A stretch of 18,465 bases of DNA, taken from IMG/VR virus record IMGVR_UViG_2731957841_000006, positions 1 to 18,465 of that record, one strand, 5' to 3'. Positions 1 through 18,465 of this stretch are shown here, piece by piece. Made by a program: the position numbers and the translations under genes. This DNA is from a virus. Its lineage: Duplodnaviria > Heunggongvirae > Uroviricota > Caudoviricetes. The notes under the pieces are model-generated. The model was not told where the DNA came from. It was given only the letters and a program-made list of their open reading frames with translations, and did no database searches. Position 1 is the first letter of the stretch. Each line of letters opens with the position of its first letter.

Positions 1-1254
1 ATGCTGGAACAAATGGGCATTGCCGCGAAGCAAGCCTCGTATAAATTAGCGCAACTCTCCAGCCGCGAAAAAAATCGCGTGCTGGAAAAAATCGCCGATG
101 AACTGGAAGCACAAAGCGAAATCATCCTCAACGCTAACGCCCAGGATGTTGCTGACGCGCGAGCCAATGGCCTTAGCGAAGCGATGCTTGACCGTCTGGC
201 ACTGACGCCCGCACGGCTGAAAGGCATTGCCGACGATGTACGTCAGGTGTGCAACCTCGCCGATCCGGTGGGGCAGGTAATCGATGGCGGCGTACTGGAC
301 AGCGGCCTGCGTCTTGAGCGTCGTCGCGTACCGCTGGGGGTTATTGGCGTGATTTATGAAGCGCGCCCGAACGTGACGGTTGATGTCGCTTCGCTGTGCC
401 TGAAAACCGGTAATGCGGTGATCCTGCGCGGTGGCAAAGAAACGTGTCGCACTAACGCTGCAACGGTGGCGGTGATTCAGGACGCCCTGAAATCCTGCGG
501 CTTACCGGCGGGTGCCGTGCAGGCGATTGATAATCCTGACCGTGCGCTGGTCAGTGAAATGCTGCGTATGGATAAATACATCGACATGCTGATCCCGCGT
601 GGTGGCGCTGGTTTGCATAAACTGTGCCGTGAACAGTCGACAATCCCGGTGATCACAGGTGGTATAGGCGTATGCCATATTTACGTTGATGAAAGTGTAG
701 AGATCGCTGAAGCATTAAAAGTGATCGTCAACGCGAAAACTCAGCGTCCGAGCACATGTAATACGGTTGAAACGTTGCTGGTGAATAAAAACATCGCCGA
801 TAGCTTCCTGCCCGCATTAAGCAAACAAATGGCGGAAAGCGGCGTGACATTACACGCAGATGCAGCTGCACTGGCGCAGTTGCAGGCAGGCCCTGCGAAG
901 GTGGTTGCTGTTAAAGCCGAAGAGTATGACGATGAGTTTCTGTCATTAGATTTGAACGTCAAAATCGTCAGCGATCTTGACGATGCCATCGCCCATATTC
1001 GTGAACACGGCACACAACACTCCGATGCGATCCTGACCCGCGATATGCGCAACGCCCAGCGTTTTGTTAACGAAGTGGATTCGTCCGCTGTTTACGTTAA
1101 CGCCTCTACGCGTTTTACCGACGGCGGCCAGTTTGGTCTGGGTGCGGAAGTGGCGGTAAGCACACAAAAACTCCACGCGCGTGGCCCAATGGGGCTGGAA
1201 GCACTGACCACTTACAAGTGGATCGGCATTGGTGATTACACCATTCGTGCGTAA
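1..1254 (+). CDS. proA: Gamma-glutamyl phosphate reductase (glutamate-5-semialdehyde dehydrogenase), full length 417 aa
   Basis: Translation matches the enterobacterial ProA sequence as I recall it end to end ([16 protein letters not shown]...GDYTIRA); the window begins at the start codon. Confidence 0.95.
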
Positions 1255-1368
1255 ATAAAACCGGGTGATGCAAAAGTAGCCATTTGATTCACAAGGCCAT
1301 TGACGCATCGCCCGGTTAGTTTTAACCTTGTCCACCGTGATTCACGTTCGTGAACATGTCCTTTCAGG

Positions 1369-1444
1369 GCCGATATAGCTCAGTTGGTAGAGCAGCGCAT
1401 TCGTAATGCGAAGGTCGTAGGTTCGACTCCTATTATCGGCACCA
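1369..1444 (+). tRNA. thrW: tRNA-Thr (anticodon CGT), 76 nt with encoded CCA
   Basis: GCCGATATAGCTCAGTTGGTAGAGCAGCGCATTCGTAATGCGAAGGTCGTAGGTTCGACTCCTATTATCGGCACCA folds as a cloverleaf: 7-bp acceptor stem GCCGATA/TATCGGC, anticodon loop TTCGTAA, T-loop GGTTCGACTCC. Sits directly after proA and directly before the integrase gene. Confidence 0.9.
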
Positions 1445-1458
1445 TTAAAATCAATAAG

Positions 1459-2622
1459 TTACACATCATTAGTACCTTCCTTATTTTTTGACTGGGACAA
1501 ATTTGGGACCGATGGGTTCAGGATCGAGTCTATTTGCCGTGCGTGTTCGGTAAGGTGATTAGGTGCAAGGTGAGCATATCGACGAACCATTTCGATAGAC
1601 TCCCAGCCTCCCATTTCCTGTAACACTGACAACGGGACTCCGGCTTGAACCAGCCAACTTGCCCAGGTGTGTCTCAAGTCGTGAAATCTGAAATCATCAA
1701 TACCAGCCCGTCTCAGCGCCGCTTTCCAGGCTGTGTTTGCGTCATACCGCATCTTCCTTACTGTTGGCGCTTTCGTTCCGTCTGGTTTGGTACAGCTTTC
1801 CTTGTACACAAATACCCAACGGTGATGATTCCCGATTTGTTTTTTCAATACGCGACATGCAGTATCATTCAGCGCAACGCCAATTGCGCGGTTTGATTTA
1901 CTCTCTTCCGGGTTTATCCATGCCACCCGGCGCTGCATATCTATTTGTTGCCATTCAAGGTTGATGATGTTCGAGCGTCTTAAGCCTGTTGCCAGTGCAA
2001 ATTCAACAACAGACTTTAATGGCTCCGGACATTCATCAATCAGCCTTTGTGCTTCATGGGGCTCCAGCCAGCGGATCCGTTTATTCTTTGGTTGAGGCAC
2101 TTTAATAATTGGTGCCTTATCCAGCATTTTCCATTCACGCTCTGCGGCTCTTAGTAGGGCCTTTATAAATGAAAGATGCGTAGCCTTCGTTGCAACGGAC
2201 GCTGGTTTTGGCGTGTATTCTGGAACAGGTTTCCCTTTTTTTCTGCATGCTTCTGCCCTGAGTTTCCAGTTTTCCTCATGACGCCGGTTCGTCATTTTCT
2301 GCATTGCTGAATAAATTTTTGATTCAGTAATGTCTCTTAGTTGCATTCCTGCGAAATGTTGAAGCCAGAATCCGATCCGGCTTTTGTCATCGTCCAGTGA
2401 TTTTTTATGTGCTTTCTCTTCAAGCCACCTGACACAAGCTTCCTCGAACGTTATATCAGGTATTTCACCAAGTTTGCTGACCCGCCATGCTTCAGCCTTT
2501 AGCTTGTCATGGAGTTCTGTCGCCTGCCTTTTGTCCTTTGTTCCAAGAGACTGTTTAAATCTTTTACCGTTCGGCAATGTGAAACTGGCGTACCATATTT
2601 CACCTCTGCGGAAGAGTGACAT
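1459..2622 (-). CDS. int: Phage integrase, tyrosine recombinase (P22-type, thrW-specific), 387 aa
   Basis: 387-aa ORF with C-terminal tyrosine-recombinase signature ([10 protein letters not shown]...VRRYAHL); N-terminus [22 protein letters not shown] resembles P22 Int; ATG preceded by AGAGGA; lies next to the tRNA 3' end. Confidence 0.92.
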
Positions 2623-2849
2623 TTTCTTTCCTCTGTTATGCCATCACCCGCGCTCACCTGGACAGTATGCAGCGGAGACTGAAGAGCCGCAATGCAGGCT
2701 TGTCGTGTTGTGAGGTAAGGAGATTTATTCTTAGTGGGATCTTTGCGTGTTGCCTGAAGACGCCCTGTGCGTATCCAGTTAATGGCAGTCGGTCTGGATA
2801 TCTTGAGAAAATGACAGGCCTCATCGAGTGTGAGGCTGTATGGCTCCAT
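2499..2849 (-). CDS. xis: Excisionase (Xis), 116 aa; 3' end overlaps the int start
   Basis: Internal ATG of the 2499..2933 ORF ([31 protein letters not shown], winged-helix/excisionase-like) preceded by GAGGTG at good spacing; size and position match P22-type Xis. Confidence 0.7.
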
Positions 2850-3154
2850 TATTTCACCTCTTGTTGTGACATTGTTGAAAAATGGATACCAGCTCGTTGC
2901 TGCCAGACGATCCAACCGAGAGTCATATCCCATGCCATGTATTCGTTATCGCCGTTTTTTGCTCTCCGACGATCTACTAAGTCACCGAAACGCTTTTCCA
3001 TGAATAATTCATAAGCTTCGCGTTCATCTGGTTCTACTTCCAGAGATAGGAGTGCGATTTCATAAGCACGGCGCTCAATATCGTCTCGCACGTCAAGGCT
3101 GCTGATACGCTCTTTAATTTCTTTAATCAGTTCTTTGTCGGTAAAAGTGGTCAT
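2849..3154 (-). CDS. Hypothetical prophage early protein, 101 aa
   Basis: ORF with GGAG upstream of the ATG; its stop overlaps the xis start (TAATG) and its start overlaps the stop of the upstream gene, indicating translational coupling in a leftward operon. Confidence 0.6.
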   Translation of the reverse strand: MTTFTDKELIKEIKERISSLDVRDDIERRAYEIALLSLEVEPDEREAYELFMEKRFGDLVDRRRAKNGDNEYMAWDMTLGWIVWQQRAGIHFSTMSQQEVK

Positions 3155-3516
3155 TATGCTCCAGCCTCCGGTGCTTTTGGCATTACTGCCCAGTGAGTGA
3201 TATTGACGTTTTCAAGGTCCCCGACCTGAAATGTCCACTGCCATTCTCCGGTTTCTTTTTGTCCCCAGGTGTACCAGAGAGAACGCCAGCCAATTAGCCA
3301 GCCTTCTCCGTTAGCATCGAATAACAAAACACTTTCATTTGCTGGTGGCAGTTCAGTTGACACTGGTATTACTTTGTTTTCCTGTGCTGCACATTTAGCT
3401 TCAAGCGCATCGAATTTACGCACCAGGTATTCAGCATCCGTTTCATTCACTTTCAGATCTCGCGGTACACATCTCCCACGAAGAAACCCTTCCATTTCGA
3501 AAACATTCATGCGCAT
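3154..3516 (-). CDS. Hypothetical prophage early protein, 120 aa (alternative start at 3510)
   Basis: ORF in the same leftward operon; GGAG 8 nt upstream of the ATG at 3516; ATG at 3510 overlaps the upstream stop (ATGA). Confidence 0.6.
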   Translation of the reverse strand: MRMNVFEMEGFLRGRCVPRDLKVNETDAEYLVRKFDALEAKCAAQENKVIPVSTELPPANESVLLFDANGEGWLIGWRSLWYTWGQKETGEWQWTFQVGDLENVNITHWAVMPKAPEAGA

Positions 3517-4043
3517 TTGCGTAACTCCGATAATTCGTTAAAGCGTTCCATAAACATCCCGTAGGCATGGCCTGGAGCCAGTGGAATCACGTTGAACATC
3601 TCTGTTGCCGGGATACCTTCCAGCACAGGCCAGAAAGAGCCATCATCAAGCCCGAGATCGCGGCGTTCGGTTGCCAGCATAATGAGATCGGCATATTTCA
3701 CTGGCGTGCTCATAACAGGAGGTAACCCGTATTTCTCACGGATTACGGCGTCTATTTTTTCTTCCATCCGTTTATAGTCAGGAAGAAGTCGTTTCAGTGG
3801 TGCGGGGATGTCCTGGCAATATGCTTCTGTTGCATCATGCATTAAAGCTTCAAAAGCAAATTCCTGCGGCACCAGCTGGCTGCAAAGCACCGCATGTTGG
3901 GCGACACTGTAGAAGTGTGAAAGATGTCCTGCAAAGCGACAGATATTTGAAAGGGAAACCGCGATATCGTTAATAACGATGTCGTCTTTATTTATCCTGT
4001 CATAATAAAAATGCTTCCCGGAAAAAGTTTTAATAAATGACAT
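3507..4043 (-). CDS. HD-domain metal-dependent phosphohydrolase (YfdR-like, nucleotidase family), 178 aa
   Basis: HD motifs visible in translation (RFAGH...H...MHDATEAY); ATG at 4043 preceded by GGAGAA (the ORF track begins at a GTG 27 nt upstream); resembles prophage CPS-53 YfdR as recalled. Confidence 0.8.
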   Translation of the reverse strand: MSFIKTFSGKHFYYDRINKDDIVINDIAVSLSNICRFAGHLSHFYSVAQHAVLCSQLVPQEFAFEALMHDATEAYCQDIPAPLKRLLPDYKRMEEKIDAVIREKYGLPPVMSTPVKYADLIMLATERRDLGLDDGSFWPVLEGIPATEMFNVIPLAPGHAYGMFMERFNELSELRKCA

Positions 4044-4094
4044 TTTGTTCTCCACGTATATGCGCTGCACCGCGCTGAATTCCGGTAAAAGGAA

Positions 4095-4515
4095 GCCCTC
4101 ACCGTCCGGCGATTATTGAGTCAATTACATTTCCATAAATGCCCCCGTAGGGGCGGTTAGTTTCTCCACAAAACAGAGAAGAACACCTGCGGTGGCAGCC
4201 GCCCGGATGGATTGGGTTATGAGCCCGTCGTCCGGTGATGCTCTTCTCTGTTTTGTAAAAAGGACGGTACCAGCCGGAAGCAAGGGTACAAGCTGGTACC
4301 GCCAAGACTACACACAGCATAAAGTTGTGGTGCCGGGTGCCTCCCGGTGCCTGGCGAAGGTTGCACACCAGGCGGGTGGGTATCCACAGAAGGTCGACTG
4401 TCAGCCTCAACCTTAACCCGCGTGCGCTGAGCCGCATTCACCACAACGCTAAGGATTCTCTCTGGTTGAAAATACTTAGCTGTTATGTGCCTGCTTTTAG
4501 CCACATCAGGCGAGG
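4095..4515. other. GC-rich, highly structured non-coding island (candidate structured RNA or element remnant), class unknown
   Basis: About 400 bp much more GC-rich than its flanks; open in several frames on both strands but no translation looks protein-like; nested inverted repeats (e.g. ACAAAACAGAGAAGA ... TCTTCTCTGTTTTGT enclosing ~50 nt; GGTACCAGC ... GCTGGTACC). Confidence 0.3.
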
Positions 4516-4523
4516 TGGACCTA

Positions 4524-4573
4524 GTTATTCCCCAACAACAAGGATTCGGTTAATCTGGTTATCCCCAACAACG
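4524..4573 (+). repeat. Two direct repeats GTTAT(T)CCCCAACAAC about 34 bp apart, just upstream of the 144-aa ORF
   Basis: Seen directly: GTTATTCCCCAACAACA and GTTATCCCCAACAACG; candidate regulator binding sites. Confidence 0.4.
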
Positions 4574-4587
4574 CAAAAGGAAAAGAA

Positions 4588-5022
4588 ATGTCCGGTAATA
4601 TCTATACGCTGTACAAATCCCACTGTGAAAATGTTGGAAAGTATCGGGGCATTGAAATCAGTGGGGTAGTGTCATCAGTCGAAATAAGCAAAGTTGAATC
4701 AAGGGCAACATTACTTACTCTTTTGGACCTTGTCTTACATGAGCACCGGAAGAAATTCGGCACTCCCTATAATCAGTTGAATGGGAAAAAGGCTCTGGTT
4801 CACCTTATTCTGATGAAGCATCACTGGATGCCAAAACAGATTAATGAGATGAAATTTGATGAACTTCTTCTTTCAATTCAGGATGAACTCACACTTGATA
4901 AAATAAGCGTAACCGCCCAGAAATTTTTAGATTATCGAGACTGGAGATCACAAATTCATCACTTTGATGATTTTGACGAAAATGAATGGGATCCTAATTT
5001 GTCTGCACAATATCTAAAGTAA
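4588..5022 (+). CDS. Hypothetical protein, 144 aa (immunity-region moron candidate)
   Basis: 435-nt ORF in AT-rich DNA with AGGA 6 nt upstream of the ATG; no comparable ORF on the opposite strand; no domain recognised by me. Confidence 0.55.
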   Translation: MSGNIYTLYKSHCENVGKYRGIEISGVVSSVEISKVESRATLLTLLDLVLHEHRKKFGTPYNQLNGKKALVHLILMKHHWMPKQINEMKFDELLLSIQDELTLDKISVTAQKFLDYRDWRSQIHHFDDFDENEWDPNLSAQYLK

Positions 5023-5200
5023 CATCCTGTGATAAAACCGTGATTTCCTGATCCAGTTTTTTTAAGGAGTCTATTGTTTCCTGTCGATAAGACAGCACTT
5101 CACGAAGCTGGTTTATAGCTGCCAGCTTCTTTGTCATCCACTCATAAATTTCCTCATCTGTGTAGCCAGGCGCGACGATTTTGGGTTCTGTTTTGTGCAT
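4994..5200 (-). CDS. Hypothetical protein, 68 aa; first gene downstream of the predicted PL promoter
   Basis: ATG at 5200 preceded by GAGGAG at ~7 nt; 3' end overlaps the convergent 144-aa ORF by ~29 nt; not arginine-rich, so not an obvious N homologue. Confidence 0.5.
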   Translation of the reverse strand: MHKTEPKIVAPGYTDEEIYEWMTKKLAAINQLREVLSYRQETIDSLKKLDQEITVLSQDVTLDIVQTN

Positions 5201-5244
5201 TTCACATCTCCTCAAGTTATCAGTTACTTGTTGATGGGGACCAG

Positions 5245-5257
5245 ATTGTTAAAGAGC
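5245..5257 (-). promoter_or_regulatory. boxA-like antitermination element in the PL leader
   Basis: Leftward transcript reads GCUCUUUAACAAU, identical over 13 nt to the rrn boxA core as I recall it; a 5-bp stem-loop (CAAGU...ACUUG) follows before the RBS of the 68-aa gene. Confidence 0.45.
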
Positions 5258-5259
5258 TA

Positions 5260-5283
5260 AGCGTCCTGTAGGGCGCTTTTTTG
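5260..5283 (+). terminator. Candidate intrinsic terminator on the + strand
   Basis: AGCGUCC-UGUA-GGGCGCU stem-loop (one G.U pair) followed by UUUUUUGUUG on the + strand. Confidence 0.4.
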
Positions 5284-5367
5284 TTGCTAACGAATCATCC
5301 TGGACTTCATATGCCCCAGGCGGCTACTTCGTGGGCGTCCTGCCTGTTCGTTGTTTCGCTTGGGTAC

Positions 5368-5395
5368 ATTATGTATCTTAAAGGTACATTGTCAA
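5368..5395 (-). promoter_or_regulatory. PL-like early-left promoter with overlapping operator half-sites
   Basis: On the minus strand: TTGACA, 16-nt spacer, CATAAT; flanked by GGTACA/TGTACC motifs of the same type as the OR palindromes. Confidence 0.5.
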
Positions 5396-5398
5396 GTA

Positions 5399-5422
5399 TA
5401 AAAAAACCTGCCGAAGCAGGTT
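5399..5422 (-). terminator. Intrinsic terminator of the cI transcript
   Basis: Minus-strand RNA ACCUGC-UUCG-GCAGGU followed by UUUUUUUAUA, immediately downstream of the cI stop. Confidence 0.6.
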
Positions 5423-5434
5423 CATAAACATTGA

Positions 5435-6109
5435 TTAGGCTTTGATTTTGTATCTTCTTGGTTTTCCTGAGAAAATCACTGTACCAATTATAGAGCAATT
5501 ACCGTTGATCTTAATGTAAGGCTCAGGCCAGTTTGGGTTTAACGCTTTGAGATAACGCTGTGTCCCATCTTCTATCAACCTTTTGAAGGTGGTTTCACCT
5601 GTATCGTGCATCAATGCAATAACGTCGTCACCGTGGCAGGCAGGTACTTCAGGATCGACAAAAATCATGTCTCCCGGGCGGTACTCATCAATCATTGAAT
5701 CACCTATCACCCGCAAGATATAAGTCATTTCCCCACAGGGTACAGGGCAGGGATACGTTTCTGCTGTGCTCAAATCAACCTCAGAATATCCAACTTCTTT
5801 CCATGCTCCGGCCTGTACCCATGATATGACAGGGACTAATGTGATTTGTTTATTAGTGATTGAAACATCAGGTTTTTTTGTGATGTTCGTTGTCTGGTGT
5901 TCTTGATCGAGCCATCCGACAGGCAGGTCGAAACATTTTTCGATGTGTCGTGCCATGCTGTCACCGATATTTTTAGTAGCACCATCTCCCATAAACCTGC
6001 TGGTCTGGGTTGGCTCGCGATCAATCATAGTGGCAAAGGAAGAATTCCCGCCAACACCATCTCTCAGTTTTCTGGCGTTAGACCGCCGGATGTCATGGAT
6101 TGTTTTCAT
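5435..6109 (-). CDS. cI: CI-like prophage repressor, LexA/S24 peptidase family, 224 aa
   Basis: N-terminal HTH region plus C-terminal S24 autopeptidase signature (GDSM ... K); divergent from the cro-like gene across an operator-rich region; no SD upstream of the ATG (probably leaderless). Confidence 0.88.
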   Translation of the reverse strand: MKTIHDIRRSNARKLRDGVGGNSSFATMIDREPTQTSRFMGDGATKNIGDSMARHIEKCFDLPVGWLDQEHQTTNITKKPDVSITNKQITLVPVISWVQAGAWKEVGYSEVDLSTAETYPCPVPCGEMTYILRVIGDSMIDEYRPGDMIFVDPEVPACHGDDVIALMHDTGETTFKRLIEDGTQRYLKALNPNWPEPYIKINGNCSIIGTVIFSGKPRRYKIKA

Positions 6110-6123
6110 AACGAAATTAAAAC

Positions 6124-6192
6124 CCTTGTACCGTTAAGGTACAAGTATCTTGAAGGTTCATTTCAATCATGTAATATGTACACCGGAGGTAC
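6124..6192. promoter_or_regulatory. OR/PR region: operator palindromes and rightward promoter
   Basis: Perfect 21-bp palindrome CTTGTACCGTTAAGGTACAAG; second site TGTACACCGGAGGTACA overlapping the cro RBS; candidate PR TTGAAG, 16-nt spacer, TAATAT at ~6149-6176. Confidence 0.55.
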
Positions 6193-6199
6193 ATATTGT

Positions 6200-6400
6200 A
6201 TGAAAGCGTATTGGGACTCTTTAACCAAAGAACAGCAGGGCGAGTTGGCCGGAAAAGTTGGCTCAACACCTGGCTACTTACGGCTGGTTTTCAATGGCTA
6301 TAAAAAAGCCAGTTTTGTGCTGGCTAAAAAACTTGAGCAATGCACGTCAGGTGCAATTACGAAATCTGACTTAAGACCGGATATCTATCCGAAAGATTAG
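6200..6400 (+). CDS. Cro-like DNA-binding regulator (YdaS-like), 66 aa
   Basis: ATG with GGAGG ~10 nt upstream; small HTH-type protein (MKAYWDSLTKEQQGELAGKVGSTPGYLRLV...) divergent from cI. Confidence 0.8.
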   Translation: MKAYWDSLTKEQQGELAGKVGSTPGYLRLVFNGYKKASFVLAKKLEQCTSGAITKSDLRPDIYPKD

Positions 6401-6431
6401 CAGAACACTTTCAATTTTTAACCACAGAACG

Positions 6432-6995
6432 ATGAGGCTAATCGTGGGTAAGCATCACTGGAAAATAGAAAAACAGCCTGAGTGGTACGTGAAAGCTGTC
6501 AGAAAAACTATCGCGGCGTTGCCGGGTGGTTACGCTGAAGCGGCTGACTGGCTCGATGTAACAGAAAACGCTTTATTCAACCGCCTTCGTGCAGATGGCG
6601 ATCAGATTTTCCCGCTGGGATGGGCAATGGTTTTACAGCGTGCTGGTGGCACTCACTTCATTGCTGATGCTGTGGCGCAGTCTGCAAATGGCGTCTTTGT
6701 GTCTCTTCCTGACGTCGAGGATGTGGACAACGCCGATATCAACCAACGCCTGCTGGAGGTCATTGAACAGATCGGCAGTTATTCAAAACAGATTCGTTCA
6801 GCAATTGAAGACGGTGTAGTGGAACCGCATGAGAAGACAGCAATTAACGACGAGTTGTACCTCTCAATTTCGAAGCTGCAGGAGCATGCAGCACTGGTCT
6901 ACAAAATTTTTTGCATTTCAGAAAGTAATGACGCCCGCGAGTGTGCAGCTCCGGGCGCCGTGGCGTGTCGTGACTGTGGAGAAACTAACGCATGA
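6432..6995 (+). CDS. YdaT-like prophage regulatory protein (CII/CP76-like family), 187 aa
   Basis: ORF immediately after the cro-like gene, as in the Rac ydaS-ydaT arrangement; family assignment from memory. Confidence 0.65.
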
Positions 6996-7330
6996 ACAGT
7001 TTAACAACACACTACCGTCGCTCGCAACTGATTGCGCTTCCTGTACCGGGTGGAAAAGCGAAGGTGGAGTATTGCTATGCAGTGAATGTACCAGGTGACA
7101 GGGAAATTGTAACCCACAGCTTTGCAGAGTGGGCTGTGGGGGATTTCAACCGGCAGAAGGAGGCAGTCCTTTGCGACAAGTTAACCGCTGGTTCAAAGAT
7201 CACTACGGAGTGCCCGTCAGAGTCATTCGTTGGGAGCCGGAAACACAACGGGTTATCTACCTCCGTGAAGGCTATGAGCATGAGTGCTTCAGCCCGCTCG
7301 AACAGTTTCGTCGTAAATTCAGGGAAATAG
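6992..7330 (+). CDS. Hypothetical protein, 112 aa (frame uncertain, see findings)
   Basis: ATG overlaps the YdaT-like stop (ATGA); stop lies 9 nt before the replication-gene start; C-terminal half is low-complexity. Confidence 0.4.
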
Positions 7331-7350
7331 AGGTCGGTCATGAGCACTAA
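7171..7350 (+). CDS. Candidate small protein, ~59 aa, in the alternative frame (TTG start)
   Basis: AGGAGG 7 nt upstream of an in-frame TTG; protein-like translation (...[55 protein letters not shown]); its stop overlaps the next gene's start. Confidence 0.3.
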
Positions 7351-8293
7351 ATTAACCGGCTATGTATGGGATGGTTGCGCAGCGTCAGGCATGAAATTAT
7401 CCAGCGTGGCAATTATGGCCCGCCTGGCTGATTTCAGTAATGACGAAGGTGTGTGCTGGCCATCAATTGAAACCATTGCCCGCCAGATTGGCGCGGGGAT
7501 GAGTACCGTCAGAACGGCTATCGCACGGCTGGAAGCAGAAGGCTGGTTAACGCGTAAGGCGCGTCGCCAGGGTAACCGCAATGCGTCGAATGTTTATCAG
7601 CTTAACGTTGCGAAGCTTCAGGCAGCGGCATTTTCTCAACTGTCAGATTCTGACCCGTCAAAATCTGACGTATCAAAATCTGACCCGTCAAAATTTGATG
7701 CGTCGAAATCTGGCAAAAAAGCGGGTTTTCACCCGTCAGAATCTGGCGGGGATCCGTCAGTAAAATCAAAACATGATCCGTCAGATAAAAAACCTTCTCG
7801 TCCGGACGCTTCGCAACCGGACACGCAGACGGCTGAACAGGATTTTTTAACTCGCCATCCTGATGCGGTTGTATTCAGCCCTAAAAAGCGCCAGTGGGGA
7901 ACGCAGGATGATTTGACCTGCGCACAGTGGCTCTGGAAAAAAATCATTGCCCTGTACGAGCAGGCCGCCGAATGTGACGGCGAGGTGGTTCGTCCCAAAG
8001 AACCGAACTGGACAGCATGGGCAAACGAAATTCGCCTGATGTGTGTGCAGGATGGTCGTACTCACAAACAAATCTGCGAGATGTACAGCCGCGTCAGCCG
8101 CGATCCGTTCTGGTGCCGTAACGTGCTCAGCCCGTCGAAGTTGCGGGAAAAATGGGATGAGCTTTCCCTGCGCTTATCGCCGTCCGTCAGCACGCACACA
8201 GAAAAACGTGAAGAGCGGTGCTTACGGAAAAGCAGCAAGCGCGCTGTATCGGGTGATGAATGGTATCTGTCAGGGAATTACGTGGGGGCTTAA
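7340..8293 (+). CDS. Phage replication initiation protein (O-like, N-terminal winged-helix DNA-binding domain), 317 aa
   Basis: AGAGG 6 nt upstream of the ATG; N-terminal HTH-like region; DNA iterons inside the gene as in lambdoid O genes. Confidence 0.75.
7643..7790 (+). repeat. Iteron array (candidate ori) inside the replication gene
   Basis: Five tandem 15-bp units (TCAAAATCTGACCCG-like) at 7643-7717 encoding SDPSK-type peptide repeats, then an A-rich tract and three further CCGTCAG motifs. Confidence 0.6.
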
Positions 8294-8403
8294 TGACGAC
8301 GTTAACTCAGTGTCAGCAGCAGGTGCTGGATATGCTGATTTCTTATCAGAAAGAACGTGGCTTCCCGCCAACCAATCAGGAGGTGGCAACCATGCTGGGA
8401 TAA
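8293..8403 (+). pseudogene. 36-codon remnant of a gene with a LexA-like N-terminal DNA-binding domain, truncated at the deletion junction
   Basis: ATG overlaps the replication-gene stop; [36 protein letters not shown] aligns with the LexA N-terminus (LTARQQEVFDLI...GMPPTRAEIAQRLG) as recalled, then stops where tail-fibre homology begins. Confidence 0.4.
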
Positions 8404-8405
8404 CC

Positions 8406-11051
8406 CATGCGACTGATGCTGCAGGCTCAGCGCGTGCAGCCAGCACGTCAGCCGGACAGGCCGCGACGTCGGCTCAGGAGGCGTCTTCCAGCGCAGGAAC
8501 GGCATCAACAAAGGCCACTGAAGCATCAAAAAGTGCTGCCGCTGCAGAGTCCTCAAAAAGCGCGGCGGCCACCAGTGCCGGTGCGGCGAAAACGTCAGAA
8601 ACGAATGCCGCAGCGTCACAACAATCAGCAGCCACTTCTGCATCCACTGCGACGACGAAAGCGTCAGAAGCCGCCACTTCAGCCCGGGATGCGGCGGCCT
8701 CCAAAGAGGCGGCAAAATCATCAGAAACGAACGCCTCCACAAGCGCCAGCAGTGCAGCCTCCTCGGCAACGGCGGCAGGAAATTCCGTGAAGGCGGCAAA
8801 AACGTCCGAGACGAATGCTAAGTCTTCTGAAACGGCAGCGGAACAGAGCGCCTCAGCTGCGGCAGACTCTGAGACAGCAGCTGCATCATCGGCCCGTGAG
8901 GCGTCCATTAAGGCAGAGGAGGCAGCAGTCAGTGCCACCGCCGCCGGAAAATCGGCAGAAAGCGCCGCATCATCCGCTTCAACAGCCACAACGAAGGCTG
9001 GCGAAGCCACTGAACAGGCCAGCGCAGCAGCGAGGTCTGCTTCCGCAGCGAAGACATCCGAAACGAACGCGAAAGCGTCGGAAACCAGCGCAGAATCCTC
9101 AAAAACGGCTGCCGCATCGTCCGCCAGTTCGGCGGCGTCATCGGCATCATCGGCGTCTGCTTCAAAAGATGAGGCGACCAGACAGGCGTCAGCAGCGAGG
9201 GGCAGCGCCACGACGGCATCCACGAAGGCGACAGAGGCTGCTGGCAGTGCGGCAGCGGCAGCACAGAGCAAAAGTACGGCAGAATCCGCAGCAACGCGCG
9301 CCGAGACAGCAGCAAAACGGGCAGAGGATATTGCATCCGCCGTGGCGCTTGAGGATGCGAGCACGACGAAAAAGGGGATAGTACAGCTCAGTAGTGCGAC
9401 CAACAGCACTTCCGAGTCACTGGCGGCAACACCAAAAGCCGTTAAGGCCGCGTATGACCTGGCTAACGGGAAATACACCGCACAGGATGCAACGACAGCA
9501 CAGAAAGGGATAATCCAGCTAAGCAGCGCGACCAACAGCACGTCTGAAACGCTTGCCGCGACACCAAAGGCAGTAAAAGCAGCCAATGACAATGCTGAGA
9601 AACGTCTGCAGAAAGATCAGAACGGTGCGGATATCCCTGGCAAAGATACCTTTACGAAAAATATTGGTGCCTGCCGTGCCTTCGGTGGGTCAGTAAGCAC
9701 AACAACAGGAAACTGGACGACTGCACAGTTTATCGAGTGGCTGGATTCTCAGGGAGCATTTAACCATCCATACTGGATGTGCAAGGGTTCCTGGTCTTAT
9801 GGCAATAATAAAATCATTACTGATACTGACTGCGGTAATATTCATCTCGCCGGAGCTGTCATTGAAGTAATGGGGATAAAGTCAGCGATGACGATCCGCA
9901 TTACCACACCGACCACCTCCACTGGTGGTGGAACAACTAACGCCCAGTTTACCTATATTAATCACGGAACAGATTATTCACCTGGCTGGCGAAGGGACTA
10001 TAACTCCAGAAATAAGCCAACGGCATCAGAGATCGGGGCGTTACCGTCAGGTGGAACAGCAGTATCATCAGTTAATCTGGCTTCAAAAGGTCGGGTAACC
10101 GCGCTGACAGACAATACGCAGGGGGCAGCAGGTCTTGAGTTATACGAGGTGTATAACAACGGATATCCAACAGCGTATGGAAATATCATTCACCTGAAAG
10201 GGATGACAGCCGTTGGCGAAGGTGAGTTACTCATCGGCTGGAGTGGTACAAGCGGTGCTCATGCTCCGGCATTTATTCGTTCACGACGGGATACGACCGA
10301 CGCAAACTGGTCGCCGTGGGCGCAGCTTTACACCTCGGCTCATCCTCCTGCAGAGTTTTATCCAGTCGGTGCACCAATCCCGTGGCCATCAGATACCGTT
10401 CCGTCTGGCTATGCCCTGATGCAGGGGCAGACTTTTGACAAATCTGCATACCCGAAACTTGCAGTTGCTTATCCGTCAGGCGTGATCCCTGATATGCGTG
10501 GCTGGACGATTAAGGGCAAGCCCGCCAGTGGTCGGGCCGTATTATCTCAGGAACAGGACGGCATTAAATCGCACACCCACAGCGCCAGCGCATCCAGTAC
10601 GGATTTGGGGACGAAAACCACATCGTCGTTTGATTACGGAACCAAATCCACGAATAACACCGGGGCGCATACCCATAGTATTAGCGGGACCGCAAATAGT
10701 GCCGGTGCGCACCAACACAAGAGTTCCGGTGCATTTGGTGGCACGAACACGAGCATTTTCCCTAATGGTTATACCGCGATTTCAAATCTAAGCGCGGGGA
10801 TTATGAGCACAACAAGCGGTAGTGGCCAGACTCGTAATGCAGGGAAGACATCATCAGATGGTGCTCATACCCACTCGCTGTCCGGCACTGCTGCAAGCGC
10901 AGGCGCACATGCACATACTGTCGGTATTGGTGCTCATACGCACTCCGTTGCGATTGGTTCACATGGACACACCATCACCGTTAACGCTGCTGGTAACGCG
11001 GAAAACACCGTCAAAAACATCGCATTTAACTATATTGTGAGGCTTGCATAA
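8406..11051 (+). pseudogene. stf: Side tail fibre protein (Stf-like), 5'-truncated; lacks the N-terminal tail-attachment region and its own start codon
   Basis: Ala/Ser/Thr-rich repeat region, two copies of the tail-fibre repeat KGI(V/I)[11 protein letters not shown](S/T)[11 protein letters not shown], and His-rich GAHTHS-type C-terminal motifs; similarity to Rac StfR (from memory) begins mid-protein; the ORF's upstream 120 codons overlap the replication gene in another frame. Confidence 0.7.
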
Positions 11052-11635
11052 TGGCATTCAGAATGAGTGAACAACCACGGACCATAAAAATTTATAATCT
11101 GCTGGCCGGAACTAATGAATTTATTGGTGAAGGTGATGCATATATTCCGCCTCATACAGGTCTGCCAGCAAACAGTACCGATATTGCACCGCCAGATATT
11201 CCGGCTGGCTTCGTGGCTGTTTTCAACAGTGATGAGTCATCGTGGCATCTCGTTGAAGATCATCGGGGTAAAACGGTTTATGACGTGGCTTCCGGCGACG
11301 CGTTATTTATTTCTGAACTCGGTCCGTTACCGGAAAATGTTACCTGGTTATCGCCGGAAGGGGAGTTTCAGAAGTGGAACGGCACAGCCTGGGTGAAGGA
11401 TACGGAAGCAGAAAAACTGTTCCGGATCCGGGAGGCGGAAGAAACAAAAAACAACCTGATGCAGGTAGCCAGTGAGCATATTGCGCCGCTTCAGGATGCT
11501 GCAGATCTGGAAATTGCAACGGAGGAAGAAACCTCGTTGCTGGAAGCCTGGAAGAAGTATCGGGTGTTGCTGAACCGTGTTGATACATCAACTGCACCTG
11601 ATATTGAGTGGCCAGAAGAACCAGACACCGTGTAA
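11051..11635 (+). CDS. tfa: Tail fibre assembly protein (Tfa), 194 aa
   Basis: Start overlaps the stf stop (TAATG); typical Tfa size, position and sequence character. Confidence 0.85.
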
Positions 11636-11647
11636 GCAAAAAAGAAA

Positions 11648-11690
11648 AACCGCAGACACGACGTATGCATGACGTGCTGCGGTTTATGCT
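11648..11690 (+). terminator. Candidate terminator hairpin downstream of tfa (copy 1 of a duplicated ~40-bp sequence)
   Basis: CCGCAG(A)CACG ... CGTGCTGCGG stem followed by TTTATGCTT; a near-copy occurs at ~15811-15853. Confidence 0.45.
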
Positions 11691-11751
11691 TATCACTTAA
11701 AGACTCAAAAATTAGGTGAGTAACGGACCGGGGACATAGCTCCTTTTTTTC

Positions 11752-12573
<822 letters not shown>

Positions 12574-12880
12574 CTAATCCTTTGAATTCACATAGTATAA
12601 AAAAGATACTTTTCCTCATAATGTGAGCTAATTTTATGTTTCGTTTGATGATTGGACCGGTCTCGAAAACCGTAGGCACGTAGTATGCGTTAATTTATGA
12701 ACAAACTACTTGTCTGCTGTTTTTCTGTCATTAGTCGTATATAGAATGATTCTCTATGCCTAACAAAGCATCACCAGTGCTAGATTACGTTGTAGTCACT
12801 GTTTAAATATCCAGATAAAATATTTCCTTCTGGGTTGAATGAGTGATAGAGTTTCACCCATTAGACCCGTTGGAGGAATT

Positions 12881-14314
12881 ATGTCTGAATTTGAAGTGTT
12901 GGCACAGCATCTGCTGAAGGAAGCCGAGGCGGAAGAAAAGCTGCGACAGGAAAATGATAAAAAGCTTATCGAGAAAGTGCTGGAAATCTATGATCAGAAG
13001 TATGTAGCTGAATTACTGAGAAAAGTCGGAAAAAATGAGTGGAGCCGTGAAACCATTAACCGCTGGATTAATGGCAAGTGTTTACCAAAATCGTTGACTT
13101 CAGTAGAAGAGTCTCTTCTGCGTAAGATGCTACCAGAACCACCTGCAAACCATCCGGAATATGCTTTCCGCTTCATTGACTTATTTGCTGGAATTGGAGG
13201 GATACGGAAAGGTTTTGAGGCCATTGGAGGCCAGTGTGTTTTTACCAGTGAATGGAATAAAGATGCTGTGCGTACATACAAGGCCAACTGGTTTAACGAT
13301 GAACAGGTGCATAAATTCAATCTCGATATTCGGGAAGTCACGCTGAGTGATAAAACCGATGTATTGGAAACGGATGCTTATGCATATATTGATGAGCATG
13401 TGCCGGATCATGATGTGCTTCTTGCGGGGTTCCCGTGCCAGCCATTTAGCCTTGCTGGTGTTAGTAAGAAAAACTCACTTGGTCGTGCGCATGGTTTTGA
13501 ATGTGAAGCACAAGGAACACTTTTTTTTGACGTGGCACGTATTATACGAGCAAAAAAACCGGCAATTTTTGTGCTGGAAAATGTCAAAAATCTGAAGAGC
13601 CATGATAAGGGTAAAACTTTCAAAGTCATTATGGAGACCCTTGACGAGCTGGGCTACGAAGTTGCCGATGCTGCAGAAATGGGAAAAAACGATCCAAAGA
13701 TTATCGATGGGAAGCATTTTTTGCCTCAGCATCGTGAACGCATTGTTCTGGTCGGATTTAGACGAGATCTGAATATTCACAAGGGGTTTACCTTGCGTGA
13801 TATCAGTCGTTTTTATCCGGAACACCGCCCATCATTTGGTGAATTGCTGGAGCCTGTAGTCGACAGTAAATATATACTTACGCCAAAACTATGGGAGTAC
13901 CTTTATAACTACGCCAAAAAGCATGCAGCCAAGGGGAATGGTTTTGGCTTTGGGTTGGTCAATCCTGAGAATAAGGAAAGCATTGCACGCACACTTTCTG
14001 CCAGATATCACAAAGACGGATCAGAAATTCTTATTGATCGTGGTTGGGATATGGCAACGGGAGAGGCTGACTTTATGAATGAGAGTAACCAGGCTCGTCG
14101 ACCACGCAGGCTGACTCCCCGAGAGTGCGCACGCCTTATGGGGTTTGAAAAACCTGGAGGGAAACCATTCCGTATTCCGGTTTCAGATACTCAGTCATAT
14201 CGGCAGTTCGGTAACTCCGTTGTGGTGCCAGTATTTGAAGCCGTTGCCAGACTTCTGGAACCCTATATCCTCAAAGCTGTTTCTGCTGATGCTGGTAAGA
14301 CTGGGCAGCCTTGA
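12881..14314 (+). CDS. DNA (cytosine-5) methyltransferase, Dcm/M.EcoRII-like (predicted CCWGG), with N-terminal HTH-like extension
   Basis: m5C-MTase motifs: [15 protein letters not shown] (motif I), GFPCQPFS (motif IV), ENV (motif VI), QFGNSV; GGAGG upstream of the ATG at 12881; N-terminus MSEFEVLAQ resembles M.EcoRII as recalled. Confidence 0.88.
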
Positions 14315-14317
14315 GAA

Positions 14318-14346
14318 CACCTCCCGGCCTTTTAAGCCGGGAGTCA
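14318..14346. terminator. Hairpin between the convergent methyltransferase and endonuclease genes
   Basis: CTCCCGGC-CTTTTAA-GCCGGGAG, 8-bp stem. Confidence 0.4.
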
Positions 14347-14348
14347 GC

Positions 14349-15557
14349 CTATGATAGTTCAGCGTAAAGTTCTATCAGCTCAGTAATGAATGCTCCGAGC
14401 GTTATTAATTCTTCTCTAACTGCTTCTGGGTATTTTTTATGTAAAGTTGATGGTACAACGAGTCTGACACCCGCATCTTTCATTTCTCGGTATTGTGCTG
14501 AAGAAACACCTTCTTGCAGCGTAAATAAATGTACCTGATGGATTTTATCTGCTTCATTCAGTATCTGACGCCAGCGATCTTTGCAGGTGGTCTTTACTGC
14601 CAGCATACGTAAGTTTTCTACAGGAAATTCAACGTCATGATATGCCTCTGCTGAAGGAAACAGGAAATCTGGTTTTTTATTACCTTCAGTAACTGCCTGA
14701 GTGGAGAAATGTCGTAGTCCGTGCTCGATAAAAAGCTTCTCTAGGTGAAGTTCAAGTGATTTACCTGCCCTTGATTTACGTCGATTACTGACAGAGTTGG
14801 CTAATGCAATAAACTCATCTACAGAATTGAATCCTTTCTTAATAATATCAAGAACATGTAATTCCTCGACGAGTAGAAAAATATCATACTCGACACGCCG
14901 ACGGTCAATCAGTTGCTCATCTGGATCCTTGGAGTTTTTAGCATAATGGCCAGCAGCATATTGAATAATTTCGTTTCCAGAAGGAAAACGCTTCTTCCAG
15001 TCTTCAGGAATAACATATTTATGATTTACTGGAGTTTGCTGAAGAGACAATCCGCCCAAAATTTGTCCGGCAGGGCCGGAAATTAGGGTTCCAGGTATGA
15101 TTTCGCCAATAGCAGACTCGATGATATCCTCTTCATCGGGATTGACGCAGACCCATATATCTACCTCGGAACAGTCAGTGTTCTGTTCGTTTAACCTGAA
15201 AGCAAGAATTGTGAGGGCTCCTGTATTTTCAGAGTTCTGTAATGGACTTCCTCTCCCCCAGCGCGTAATTCTTTTTTCGTTTCGGGTCTTACCAAAATAA
15301 CGGTTGTTGTAATAAATTGCGCGTGCTTGGGTATCAGGGCAATCATGGGATGATACATGCGCAGTAAGGAAGACTGAAGGGTTCAGTTCGCGAGTATGAT
15401 TGATAGAAGGAAAAAGCTTTTCAACGATATTTGAGGGGATATAAAGTCCGACCTGATGGCCACCTGTTGCGCCTGTGTCGTTTGCAGAAAGGCGTTTGAT
15501 GTAGATAAAGTAATTCCCGCTTGCGATATCAAGCAGCCAGTTATGAAAAACCGACAT
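14349..15557 (-). CDS. Type IIE restriction endonuclease, EcoRII-like, ~402 aa
   Basis: Translation closely resembles EcoRII as I recall it (MSVFHNWLL..., ~404 aa) and is convergent with a Dcm-type methyltransferase, the known EcoRII R-M arrangement. Confidence 0.82.
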   Translation of the reverse strand: MSVFHNWLLDIASGNYFIYIKRLSANDTGATGGHQVGLYIPSNIVEKLFPSINHTRELNPSVFLTAHVSSHDCPDTQARAIYYNNRYFGKTRNEKRITRWGRGSPLQNSENTGALTILAFRLNEQNTDCSEVDIWVCVNPDEEDIIESAIGEIIPGTLISGPAGQILGGLSLQQTPVNHKYVIPEDWKKRFPSGNEIIQYAAGHYAKNSKDPDEQLIDRRRVEYDIFLLVEELHVLDIIKKGFNSVDEFIALANSVSNRRKSRAGKSLELHLEKLFIEHGLRHFSTQAVTEGNKKPDFLFPSAEAYHDVEFPVENLRMLAVKTTCKDRWRQILNEADKIHQVHLFTLQEGVSSAQYREMKDAGVRLVVPSTLHKKYPEAVREELITLGAFITELIELYAELS

Positions 15558-15639
15558 ATACATCCCTTTGTTAACATACAGTCAGGGTTAACATTTTTCC
15601 ATAGTTATAGATAAGCGGCTAGGAACTTAAGGGAAAAAC

Positions 15640-15664
15640 AAAAAGCCCGCATAAGCGGGCTTTT
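15640..15664. terminator. Bidirectional terminator-like hairpin upstream of the restriction gene
   Basis: AAAAAGCCCGC-ATAA-GCGGGCTTTTT: perfect 7-bp stem flanked by A-run and T-run. Confidence 0.45.
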
Positions 15665-16173
15665 GTGTCACTCGAGAGCCGCGGCTCCTTTGCGTATCTT
15701 TTTTGTCTCCTCACCGTCTGGTCGGTGTCCTGCTGAGACTGCTAATTTCCTGTTTTTGTTAGTACTGTCCTAGAACTGTCCAATCATGATTGGTGGGCTG
15801 GCGGAGTTGAAACCGCAGACACGTCGTATGTAAGAACGTGCTGCGGCTGGCTGGCCAGCTTCTGATAGTGCGAATATTGAATGATTTCTATCTGTTATAG
15901 ATTTTACCGTATTTCGGCATGAATGAAACTGAATATCCTCCCACCGATTCTCCATGACTTTACGCCACTGTCTCTAGGGCTGCTATGTGCCAGGAGCAGA
16001 CGTTACTAACATCTATCTGCATCAATCTGTGGGGAGCAGAACCGTGATATGTTAACTGCATCCAAACGGAGTCAACACCAGAAAAAATCCTCCTAGTAGG
16101 ACGGTGCACTAGTATTCATCTTGTTCTAATCTCAATCCACAGCGGTAAAAATTGCGAAGAAAAAGGGATTTAT

Positions 16174-18465
16174 ATGCTTGAAAGAATTCATCAAATTACC
16201 AGCGTGGGTTTATTCCAGGATATCCGTCCTGCTGGTATGTCCTTTAAAAAAATGACCTTTGTCTATGCTGATAATGGGCGTGGTAAATCCACCCTTGCGT
16301 CAATTCTGCGTTCCTACACTGAATTAAATCCAGATATTGTACGGCACAGGAAAACGATTGGGGAAACGACCCCTCAAAATATTCATCTGCAGTTTTCGCA
16401 GGGAAATCGTGCGATTTACGATAACGATACATGGAATGGTAAGTATTCAGATGTGCACGTCTTCGACCTAGATTTTGTTGACCGTAATGTTTACTCAGGT
16501 GGTGAAATCAGCGCTAGCCATAGAAAGCGACTGCTGAGTTTTGCGCTGGGCAGTGATGCGGTAGCCGCGAGGGCTGCTTTTATTGATGCATCAGACAAGG
16601 CAGAGGAGGCCAAGAGAGTTACGAGACTGGCAAGTGAAAAGCTGACAGTAGCCCGGGGGAATGTAACTCTAGCAAAATACATAAAGCCTGTTCAGGAAGA
16701 TAACATTCAGGAAAAAATTGCATTAGTCGAATCAGAACTGGATCTCTGCAAAAGAATAGAGACGATCCGCAACCGTACGGGTTATCTTTCGTTACCTCTT
16801 TACGCTCCTGATTTCAGTTCTTTTTTTTCCACTCTTGCAGCTAGCTATGACAGCCTCAGTGCGGGTGCAGAAGAGGTCGTCTGTGCGCATATTGACCATA
16901 TCAATGTCGAAGGTTTTGAGCGATGGGCGAGCAACGGCCTTGATTATATAAAAGACGAATATTGTCCTTTCTGTACGCAAAGCCTGGAGGGTATTGAACT
17001 GATCCGGTACTACCGGGAGCGGTTTAATCTTGCATACAAAGCCTTACTTAATCAGGTCACAGGCCTAGATAAAGTTGTGGCGACTGCCATGCGCGTTTTC
17101 AATCTGGCCTTACTTGAAAGCAAGATTGAGCAGGCTGGTTTAGTGACTGAAAATTGGAAAGATTGTCTCCAGTTGCCCGTGAGTCTCCCTGATTTAGATA
17201 AAATTAAAGCTAGTTTGGAAGGTCTTCAATCATCGCTGAACCGCTTAACGGAAGCCAAGAAAAACGATCCGCTTGCAAAGACCCAAGGCGACTATGAAAA
17301 AGAAATCGCGGATGCAGTAACTGCAATCAATGATGAGCTTTCTATCTTTAATTCGGGCGTGGAAGCTGCCAATCTGGATATTCAGGCTTATAAAGAGGCG
17401 CTTGAAACCAAAAATGAAGAAACCCTGCGGGTTACATTATCCCAGTATGAAGCAACACGACTTCGTCTATCACCTGAGATAGTAGGTTTTATCTCTGATT
17501 ATCAGACCGCTAAAACTGCTGAAGTGGTTGCCTCTGAACTGAAGGAAACACGGAGGGCTGAACTCAATGCGATCATGGACTCGACCCTTGGAAAGTATCA
17601 ATCCTCCATCAATGATTTATTGATGAAGTTTGGTGCAAGCTTTCGCATCACAGAAATTAATTATAACTATGCTGGCGGCGGTGAGCCTAAGTCTGAATAT
17701 GCAATTGAACTTAGAGGGGAAAAGATTTCGCTAACGGGAGAAGAATCCAGTTTCCGGAGCTCATTGAGTGAAGGGGACAAAAGGACGCTAGCCTTCGCAT
17801 TCTTTATTTCAGTGTTGCTTCATGACGTTGATCTTGAGAGAAAAATTGTAGTGATTGATGATCCGATGTGTAGTCTGGACAATCATCGCAGGAACCACAC
17901 AATCACCATCATTAAACAGATTTACCTTCGCAGCTTGCAGGTAATCATCTTGGCGCACGACCTGTTCTTTATCCGTACCATGCGAGATGAGTTCCTGAAA
18001 ATACCTGCTACTCAAATGCAGGACATTTCAACCTTACGCATTGTCAACATTGCTGGTGATTTCAGTAGCTTGGATAAACTAGATATCGATCTGGAATGTG
18101 AATCTCCCTACTATAAAAATCATCGTCTGGTGAGCGGATTTGCCGATGGTGCTCATCATCAGCTTCACGATACGGCGGTGGCGATCAGACCGCTTCTTGA
18201 AGGGTATCTGCATCGTCGTTTCCCGGGGCAAATTTCACCGGGAAATCTGTTTGGAGAGGTAGTAGCGCAGATTGCACAAGCACAACCGAGCGATCCGTTA
18301 TTCTTCGCTAAATCACTGGTACCTGAGTTGAATGAAATTAACAATTATGCTGGTCGCTATCATCATGACACGAACCCTCAGGCATCATCAGAACCCATCA
18401 CGCCAGGTGAACTGATGTCTTACTCTCGACGGGCTTTGAATGTGATTTATCGCGGAAACATATGA
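16174..18465 (+). CDS. AAA_13-family ABC-type ATPase with CxxC (zinc-hook-like) motif and C-terminal domain; RloC/PrrC-like candidate anticodon nuclease, 763 aa
   Basis: Walker A (ADNGRGKST), central coiled-coil-like region with YCPFCTQ, ABC-signature-like LSEGDKRTLAFAFFIS, Walker B (KIVVIDDPMCSLD), His/Arg-rich C-terminal ~150 aa; AAAGGG 6 nt upstream of the ATG; adjacent to an R-M system. Confidence 0.7.
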   Translation: MLERIHQITSVGLFQDIRPAGMSFKKMTFVYADNGRGKSTLASILRSYTELNPDIVRHRKTIGETTPQNIHLQFSQGNRAIYDNDTWNGKYSDVHVFDLDFVDRNVYSGGEISASHRKRLLSFALGSDAVAARAAFIDASDKAEEAKRVTRLASEKLTVARGNVTLAKYIKPVQEDNIQEKIALVESELDLCKRIETIRNRTGYLSLPLYAPDFSSFFSTLAASYDSLSAGAEEVVCAHIDHINVEGFERWASNGLDYIKDEYCPFCTQSLEGIELIRYYRERFNLAYKALLNQVTGLDKVVATAMRVFNLALLESKIEQAGLVTENWKDCLQLPVSLPDLDKIKASLEGLQSSLNRLTEAKKNDPLAKTQGDYEKEIADAVTAINDELSIFNSGVEAANLDIQAYKEALETKNEETLRVTLSQYEATRLRLSPEIVGFISDYQTAKTAEVVASELKETRRAELNAIMDSTLGKYQSSINDLLMKFGASFRITEINYNYAGGGEPKSEYAIELRGEKISLTGEESSFRSSLSEGDKRTLAFAFFISVLLHDVDLERKIVVIDDPMCSLDNHRRNHTITIIKQIYLRSLQVIILAHDLFFIRTMRDEFLKIPATQMQDISTLRIVNIAGDFSSLDKLDIDLECESPYYKNHRLVSGFADGAHHQLHDTAVAIRPLLEGYLHRRFPGQISPGNLFGEVVAQIAQAQPSDPLFFAKSLVPELNEINNYAGRYHHDTNPQASSEPITPGELMSYSRRALNVIYRGNI

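Follow-up and report, generated by a model that had tools for sequence, protein, structure and literature searches.

The DNA studied here, referred to below as the window, is the 18,465-nt stretch given by positions 1 to 18,465 of IMG/VR record IMGVR_UViG_2731957841_000006. It comes from JTFD00000000, the genome of Escherichia coli VL2732, a phylogroup A/ST10 strain from persistent bovine mastitis (PMC4725725). The window begins at proA and the tRNA gene thrW, continues through the integrase, immunity and replication genes of a lambdoid prophage, and reaches a 36-codon LexA-like open reading frame (ORF), beyond which a side tail fibre gene, stf, starts in mid-protein and is followed by tfa and by restriction and defence genes (Table 1). 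This study concerns the point where the LexA-like stub meets the truncated fibre gene (stf'), called J2 below, and a second scar, J1, in the replication gene just upstream. Domains were assigned with Pfam, defence genes with PADLOC and the tRNA with ARAGORN, and BLAST searches for the junctions covered 5,426 complete E. coli genomes together with 50,697 phage records. Related loci carry the labels L004 and L005 (strain 210221272, NZ_CP016404.1), L008 (strain NS-NP030, NZ_AP024126.1), L001 (EC147566) and L028 (the K-12 cryptic prophage CPS-53).

The LexA-like stub

A TAA at 8291–8293 closes the upstream ORF, and the ATG of the stub (8293–8295) overlaps it by one base; 36 codons further on, the stub ends at a TAA at 8401–8403, the sequence around stub and junction reading ...GGGGCTTAATGACGACG... 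The original prediction, made from the sequence alone, had described this overlap and a LexA-type N-terminus. Both are confirmed, the former by the coordinates and the latter by a match of the 36-residue product to positions 1–36 of the 65 in Pfam LexA_DNA_bind (PF01726; E=9.2e-8, 32.2 bits, cut-off 23.7). The TAATG overlap is a native arrangement, in which the stop codon of the parental yfdN gene meets the start codon of the LexA-like gene. In related prophages this gene is full length (108 residues, annotated 'LexA family'), and the stub DNA is 98–100% identical to its 5' end over the shared 110–191 nt. The full-length relative aligns to residues 2–69 of the DNA-binding domain of E. coli LexA (PDB 1lea, E=7e-16). 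The last residue of the stub aligns with LexA Gly36, and the segment matching LexA residues ~37–69 is gone. The position of Gly36 I take, from the known LexA structure, to be the end of helix 2. The stub ends after this helix, so that recognition helix 3 and the wing are absent and the domain is incomplete; the stub product would not be expected to bind DNA.

Junction J2 and the large deletion

In all BLAST matches the left-hand homology to relatives stops at 8402 and the homology to Stf begins at 8402, the first complete Stf codon being Thr143 at 8403–8405. The stub does therefore stop where Stf begins in mid-protein, as had been proposed. At the level of single bases, the LexA-like parent (...CTGGGATA/CCGTTC, where the slash marks the break) and the stf parent (...GGCGGCA/ACCCATGCG) yield the product ...CTGGGATAACCCATGCG. 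The deletion extends from LexA-like codon 37 to stf codon 142. The join, which leaves stf' in a different frame from the stub, is clean: the parents have a single base in common, the A at 8402, and there is no filler. A look for short microhomology near 8395–8410 had been suggested; at the join it amounts to this one base. The stop codon of the stub is made by the junction itself, which converts the TAC of Tyr37 of the LexA-like gene into TAA.

The parental arrangement is seen in an apparently intact thrW prophage of strain NS-NP030, alignment to which maps the endpoints of the deletion that had been suspected at this place. The left arm of the window is 99.94% identical to this prophage over 1–8223 and 99.5% over 8212–8402, and window 8402–12688 (stf-tfa-GIY-YIG) corresponds to L008 38245–42531 at 99.3%. 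Since both the left arm and the stf-tfa-GIY-YIG segment match, NS-NP030 is a good stand-in for the parent, although its cargo past the GIY-YIG gene differs from that of the window. Between the two J2 breakpoints L008 carries 29,364 bp. The interval begins with the rest of the LexA-like gene, rusA, a KilA-N gene, DUF968 and the antiterminator gene Q. There follow holin, lysozyme, Rz and bor, both terminase subunits, portal, protease, and the decoration and major capsid proteins, and then the head-tail and tail genes, the tape measure, L/K/I/J, lom and the first 142 codons of stf. The flanks of J2 are thus 99.3–99.9% collinear with a prophage carrying 29,364 bp more, as is characteristic of a cryptic prophage. 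A near-intact thrW prophage in strain 210221272 is also closely related: its left arm is 99.95% (1–8223) and 100% (8212–8402) identical to the window, and it carries an EcoRII-like restriction-modification cargo as the window does. Both prophages possess two segments that the window does not, namely 479 bp comprising the Rep C-terminus and yfdN, and ~29.4 kb of late genes.

J2 occurs in none of the complete E. coli genomes or phage records searched, no record crosses 8402, and the same collections yielded no intact phage with the same gene order, the case that had been named as telling against a deletion. Likewise, the 36-nt J2 sequence has no exact match in species-representative genomes. The window is reproduced by contig JTFD01000020.1 (assembly GCA_001441325.1), which matches it with 0 mismatches over 18,293 bases, and the Logan assembly of SRR2070768 is identical to it through 8510 and hence spans both J1 and J2.

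Homologous recombination between repeats was rejected as the cause of J2, only 1 nt being common at the join. The two parental sites (L008 8859–8875 and 38234–38250) do contain an imperfect 17-nt match, GAGG(T/C)GGCAACC(-/C)ATGC, no more than 25 nt away from the breakpoints. Set against random pairs of sites in the same prophage, such a match is unusual (empirical p ~0.003, a post hoc figure). In window 8380–8410 it leaves AACCATGC...AACCCATGC, a short direct repeat around the join. The crossover lies outside the 17-nt match, which may at most have aided synapsis. The creation of a promoter or terminator at J2 was considered too and rejected: site counts are at the level of shuffled sequence, and none lies near 8400 on the + strand.

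Junction J1 and the chimeric replication gene

The stub had been placed right after the replication gene. The adjacency stands, but the upstream ORF is not a native replication gene; it is a chimera, Rep-'YfdN, produced by a 479-bp deletion that had been missed. Window 1–8223 equals L004 20001–28223 and window 8212–8402 equals L004 28691–28881, and 479 bp are absent between window 8214 and 8215 relative to both L004 and L008. Rep has thereby lost its final 21 codons and yfdN/PerC 140 of its 164, and Rep residues 1–292 (...THTEKRE) now run in frame into the 25 C-terminal residues of YfdN/PerC, in what is annotated as a 317-residue 'replication protein'. The N-terminal part of Rep, winged-helix, HTH_36 and DnaD_N-like, is kept. 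Within rep, window 7649–7712 holds a 15-nt unit, TCTGACCCGTCAAAA, repeated 4.3 times and encoding SDPSKSD repeats, which probably represents origin iterons, as in lambda O.

The parental sites of J1 share only AGA (8212–8214), and a CGT three bases upstream is also common to them. The 12-bp overlap found by BLAST at J1 was discarded as a true repeat, being partly mismatched, with local similarity at chance level (p=0.47). J1 is absent from the searched genomes and phage records. Among the matches listed (E. coli and phages), all carry the extra ~479 bp, in the form of yfdN alone or of dam and yfdN. An exact-protein look-up in a 153-billion-gene index turned up the chimeric Rep protein on no more than two distinct contigs, in three sample entries.

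The tail fibre fragment

Full-length Stf has 1024 residues, with phage_tail_N (PF08400) at residues 1–134. The fragment begins at residue 143 and lacks this N-terminal attachment domain, and Pfam detects in it only Phage_fiber_2 (E=3.7e-37) and Collar (E=3.7e-11); the fibre repeats, the collar/C-terminal part and the downstream tfa gene identify it as Stf. The fragment has neither its own start codon nor any start preceded by a Shine-Dalgarno sequence, and its frame differs from that of the stub. The source's gene call for it, an 883-residue 'tail protein', begins at 8400 with the non-standard start ATA. Upstream, the stf frame stays open as far as 8043, giving a 1002-residue ORF (8043–11051) with in-frame ATGs at 8157 and 8256. 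This ORF was rejected as a real extended gene; it is open by chance, and its first ~120 codons read rep' and the stub in the wrong frame. A site scan detected no terminator-like site on the + strand between rep and stf'. The deletion would have brought stf' and tfa into the rightward transcription unit of the early genes; with no such site intervening, they may be transcribed on SOS induction.

Other features of the element

The remaining features are listed in Table 1, to which yfdT/S/R-type early-left genes and DUF4222, between the integrase and Rep, are to be added. In the relatives, the thrW site with its tRNA-adjacent integrase holds an apparently intact prophage. From the tRNA to the end of the window, no Q, late-regulation, lysis, terminase, head or tail-shaft gene was found among the ORFs and gene calls, stf'-tfa excepted. 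This absence of morphogenesis and lysis genes has been verified for the interior of the window, to which it applies. The original prediction was right in these respects, though not in counting a missing helicase loader as a sign of deletion, since the intact relatives (L004, L008 annotation) have no separate helicase-loader gene either. Its description of a defective remnant that keeps int/xis, immunity, stf'-tfa and defence cargo also holds. That the element retains replication is, by contrast, doubtful, because Rep lost its last 21 residues to the 479-bp deletion that also took yfdN.

Table 1. Coordinates of the thrW element and its neighbours in the window
Feature	Position	Strand	Basis or remark
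proA	1–1254		upstream of thrW
tRNA-Thr(CGU) thrW, prophage attachment site, attL side	1369–1444	+	ARAGORN; proA-thrW-int order same in relatives
Tyrosine integrase	1459–2622	-	Pfam Phage_integrase on the source's gene calls; RefSeq annotation of 99.9% identical relatives
HTH_17 excisionase-like gene	~2499–2933		Pfam HTH_17 on the source's gene calls; RefSeq annotation of relatives
CI-type immunity repressor, YmfK-like, S24 peptidase	5435–6109	-	Peptidase_S24 match; L004 and L008 annotation
cro-like ymfT, divergent from the CI-type repressor	6200–6400		Peptidase_S24/YdaS/Phage_CP76 match set for the repressor-ymfT-ymfL region; L004 and L008 annotation
ymfL, divergent from the CI-type repressor	6444–6995		same match set; L004 and L008 annotation
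Chimeric replication gene Rep-'YfdN	7340–8293	+	alignment to L004; base-level and protein comparison
Junction J1, scar of 479-bp deletion	8212–8214		
36-codon LexA-like stub	8293–8403	+	Pfam PF01726
Junction J2, scar of 29,364-bp deletion	8402–8403		
stf', side tail fibre codons 143–1024	8403–11051	+	Pfam; 99.3% identity to L008 38245–42531
tfa, tail fibre assembly, intact; start overlaps stf stop	11051–11635	+	Caudo_TAP E=1e-44
PD-T4-3 GIY-YIG defence gene	11752–12528	-	Pfam, PADLOC; E=5e-128
Cytosine methyltransferase	12881–14314	+	Pfam, PADLOC
EcoRII-like endonuclease	14349–15563	-	Pfam, PADLOC; E=3e-234
AAA_13/PDC-S06-like ATPase, 763 residues	16174–18465	+	PADLOC best match candidate system PDC-S06, E=7e-72

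Two overlapping short ORFs lie at window 4099–4504, where the relatives annotate a 'frameshifted hypothetical protein' (L004 24125–24444, L008 4125–4444); this early-left gene appears to be already broken in the intact-looking relatives too.

The right-end cassette of PD-T4-3 GIY-YIG gene and methyltransferase/EcoRII-like pair is met again in prophages of quite different kinds, with lambda-like and Mu-like tails (loci L015–L024), likewise at their right end, the sites being thrW and the neighbourhood of ssrA/smpB. The exact methyltransferase protein has entries in 18,633 blocks of the collection. The cassette behaves like a mobile piece of cargo for which prophage ends are a hotspot. The AAA_13 gene with 190 bp upstream of it (window 15982–18465) is 100% identical to a gene inserted between DUF977 and hok in Qin-like prophages of other E. 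coli strains, an early-region position that precedes hok, rem, DUF968, Q and the lysis genes. Homology to the thrW-site cargo of other strains ends at ~16012 and overlaps the Qin-like homology by ~30 bp. The window ends at the AAA_13 stop codon.

Deletion scars in related prophages

The block formed by rep, (dam), yfdN/PerC and the LexA-like gene is 97.5–98.5% identical to window 7340–8402 in Shigella phages SfII and SfIV and in related Escherichia phages such as vB_EcoS-569R4 and PhiR49_1. All of these phages are complete, with Rep, yfdN and the 108-residue LexA-like gene at full length and the tail genes far from the block.

The closest parallel to the window is CPS-53 (KpLE1), a cryptic prophage of K-12 from the same phage family, whose yfdT/S/R and rep-yfdN segments are 95.5–98% identical to the window. 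Its scar is alike (L028 7545–9247): yfdO, which is a rep fragment, is followed by yfdN, a yfdM fragment, the tail-fibre pseudogene yfdL and the tail fibre assembly gene yfdK, and every late gene is missing. CPS-53 nonetheless differs from the VL2732 element in several respects. It is located at argW, not thrW, and has another integrase; the breakpoint falls in the methyltransferase gene yfdM, not in the LexA-like gene; rep is truncated N-terminally, whereas in the window it is truncated C-terminally; and gtr O-antigen genes take the place of the restriction/defence cargo. In EC147566 (L001 12731–13540, at the yjjG-prfC locus) the LexA-like gene is intact and the 5' end of rusA, only a few bases of it, is joined to the middle of lom, followed by stf-tfa; this rusA'-'lom junction was found in that one genome only. 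The thrW remnants of PSJ-23 and Z1323PEC0011 have other breakpoints. These two and EC147566 are independent deletion derivatives of related prophages, each with int, immunity and the right-end cargo kept. J1 and J2 are shared by none of PSJ-23, Z1323PEC0011 and EC147566. All three deletions, in VL2732, EC147566 and CPS-53, keep the 3' part of the tail fibre gene and tfa.

These scars are sporadic, strain-specific decay and not a conserved architecture. Because of this, and because the arms are 99.3–99.9% identical to those of an apparently intact prophage, a satellite lineage is argued against; with J2 confined to two contigs, the element does not qualify as a phage satellite of the phage-inducible chromosomal island (PICI) type.

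Discussion

The element at thrW of E. coli VL2732 is, with high confidence, a defective (cryptic) lambdoid prophage derived from an NS-NP030-like phage by at least two illegitimate deletions, which did not depend on homology. The large deletion (J2) took everything from rusA through lom together with the Stf anchor domain, joining LexA-like codon 37 to stf codon 142/143, and the small one (J1, 479 bp) cost Rep its C-terminus and yfdN/PerC nearly its whole length, creating the in-frame Rep-'YfdN fusion. Replication slippage and alternative end joining are known E. coli routes for joins of this kind. Both scars are consistent with RecA-independent end joining or with replication slippage at 1–3 nt of microhomology. 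The 99.3–99.9% identity of the flanks to an apparently intact prophage points to a recent event. Loss of the cos/terminase region would make the element unpackageable, and from its gene content it is predicted neither to lyse its host nor to make particles. The stub and stf' would be non-functional debris. The rest of the element may still be repressed, derepressed by the SOS response and possibly excised, and it could owe its persistence to doing no harm and to the immunity and anti-phage cargo that it provides.

Several points weigh against this account or limit its detail. NS-NP030 need not be the true parent, being 99.3% identical on the right and carrying different cargo, so that the exact size of the loss is an estimate and either deletion may have come first. 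The attR site lies beyond the window and the AAA_13 gene is 100% identical to one found in Qin-like prophages of other strains; further rearrangement to the right is possible. The lack of function of the stub and of stf' is itself a prediction. Finally, the two assemblies may stem from the same isolate or the same reads.

An alternative is that the arrangement is functional and under selection, the element being a satellite-like or domesticated mini-prophage in which the SOS-controlled early operon drives expression of the anchor-less Stf fragment and of Tfa, which might, for instance, act as a free receptor-binding protein or be a module on offer to incoming phages. Such an arrangement would profit from the lack of a + strand terminator-like site between rep and stf', which makes co-transcription of stf'-tfa with the early genes probable, and from the stf frame that is open back to 8043 and offers ATGs at 8157 and 8256. 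The retention of the tail-fibre 3' part and tfa after three independent deletions in the family, and of the defence cargo, would fit it as well. However, the three junctions all differ, and the two that were tested (VL2732 and EC147566) are strain-specific singletons, so that there is no conserved architecture; the identity of the flanks to an apparently intact prophage (99.3–99.9%) indicates a recent event; stf' is out of frame with the stub and has neither a Shine-Dalgarno-preceded start nor an attachment domain; and the cos and terminase region required for packaging is gone. A selected function is therefore very unlikely. Equally hard to credit is its most specific form, in which anchor-less Stf 143–1024 and Tfa, under the SOS-controlled early operon and with translation from 8157 or 8256, would be released as a free receptor-binding fibre on induction. 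If this were true, receptors could be blocked by the free fibre, or incoming lambdoid phages could switch their host range by recombining with this DNA as a ready donor, and the repeated retention of 'stf-tfa in VL2732, EC147566 and CPS-53 would reflect selection rather than chance.

That a draft contig misjoins the early region of one prophage to a tail-fibre region, whether of that prophage or of another, can be put aside as highly improbable: the source is indeed a short-read draft genome (JTFD01000020.1), stf is repetitive and multi-copy in E. coli (a median of 3 matching places in each genome), the Logan contig stops after 107 nt of stf' and the junction is on two contigs only, but the NCBI and Logan pipelines agree across J1 and J2 with 0 mismatches, the left side is unique up to the join base, where the 1 nt in common provides no repeat to mislead an assembler, and the 84-kb contig runs on at both sides.

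Under the preferred reading, that of a cryptic prophage produced by two deletions, three entries in the annotation of this locus, the 36-residue 'LexA' ORF, the 883-residue 'tail protein' and the 317-residue 'replication protein', should be flagged as fragments or a fusion and not be taken for functional genes. Prophage decay of this kind is already well known, and the window is an ordinary, strain-specific example of it. What it offers is a base-by-base account of how a thrW prophage was disarmed by two clean, microhomology-poor deletions, one of which made a chimeric Rep, and another remnant of the CPS-53 type, in which immunity, the 3' part of the tail fibre gene with tfa, and anti-phage cargo have been kept.

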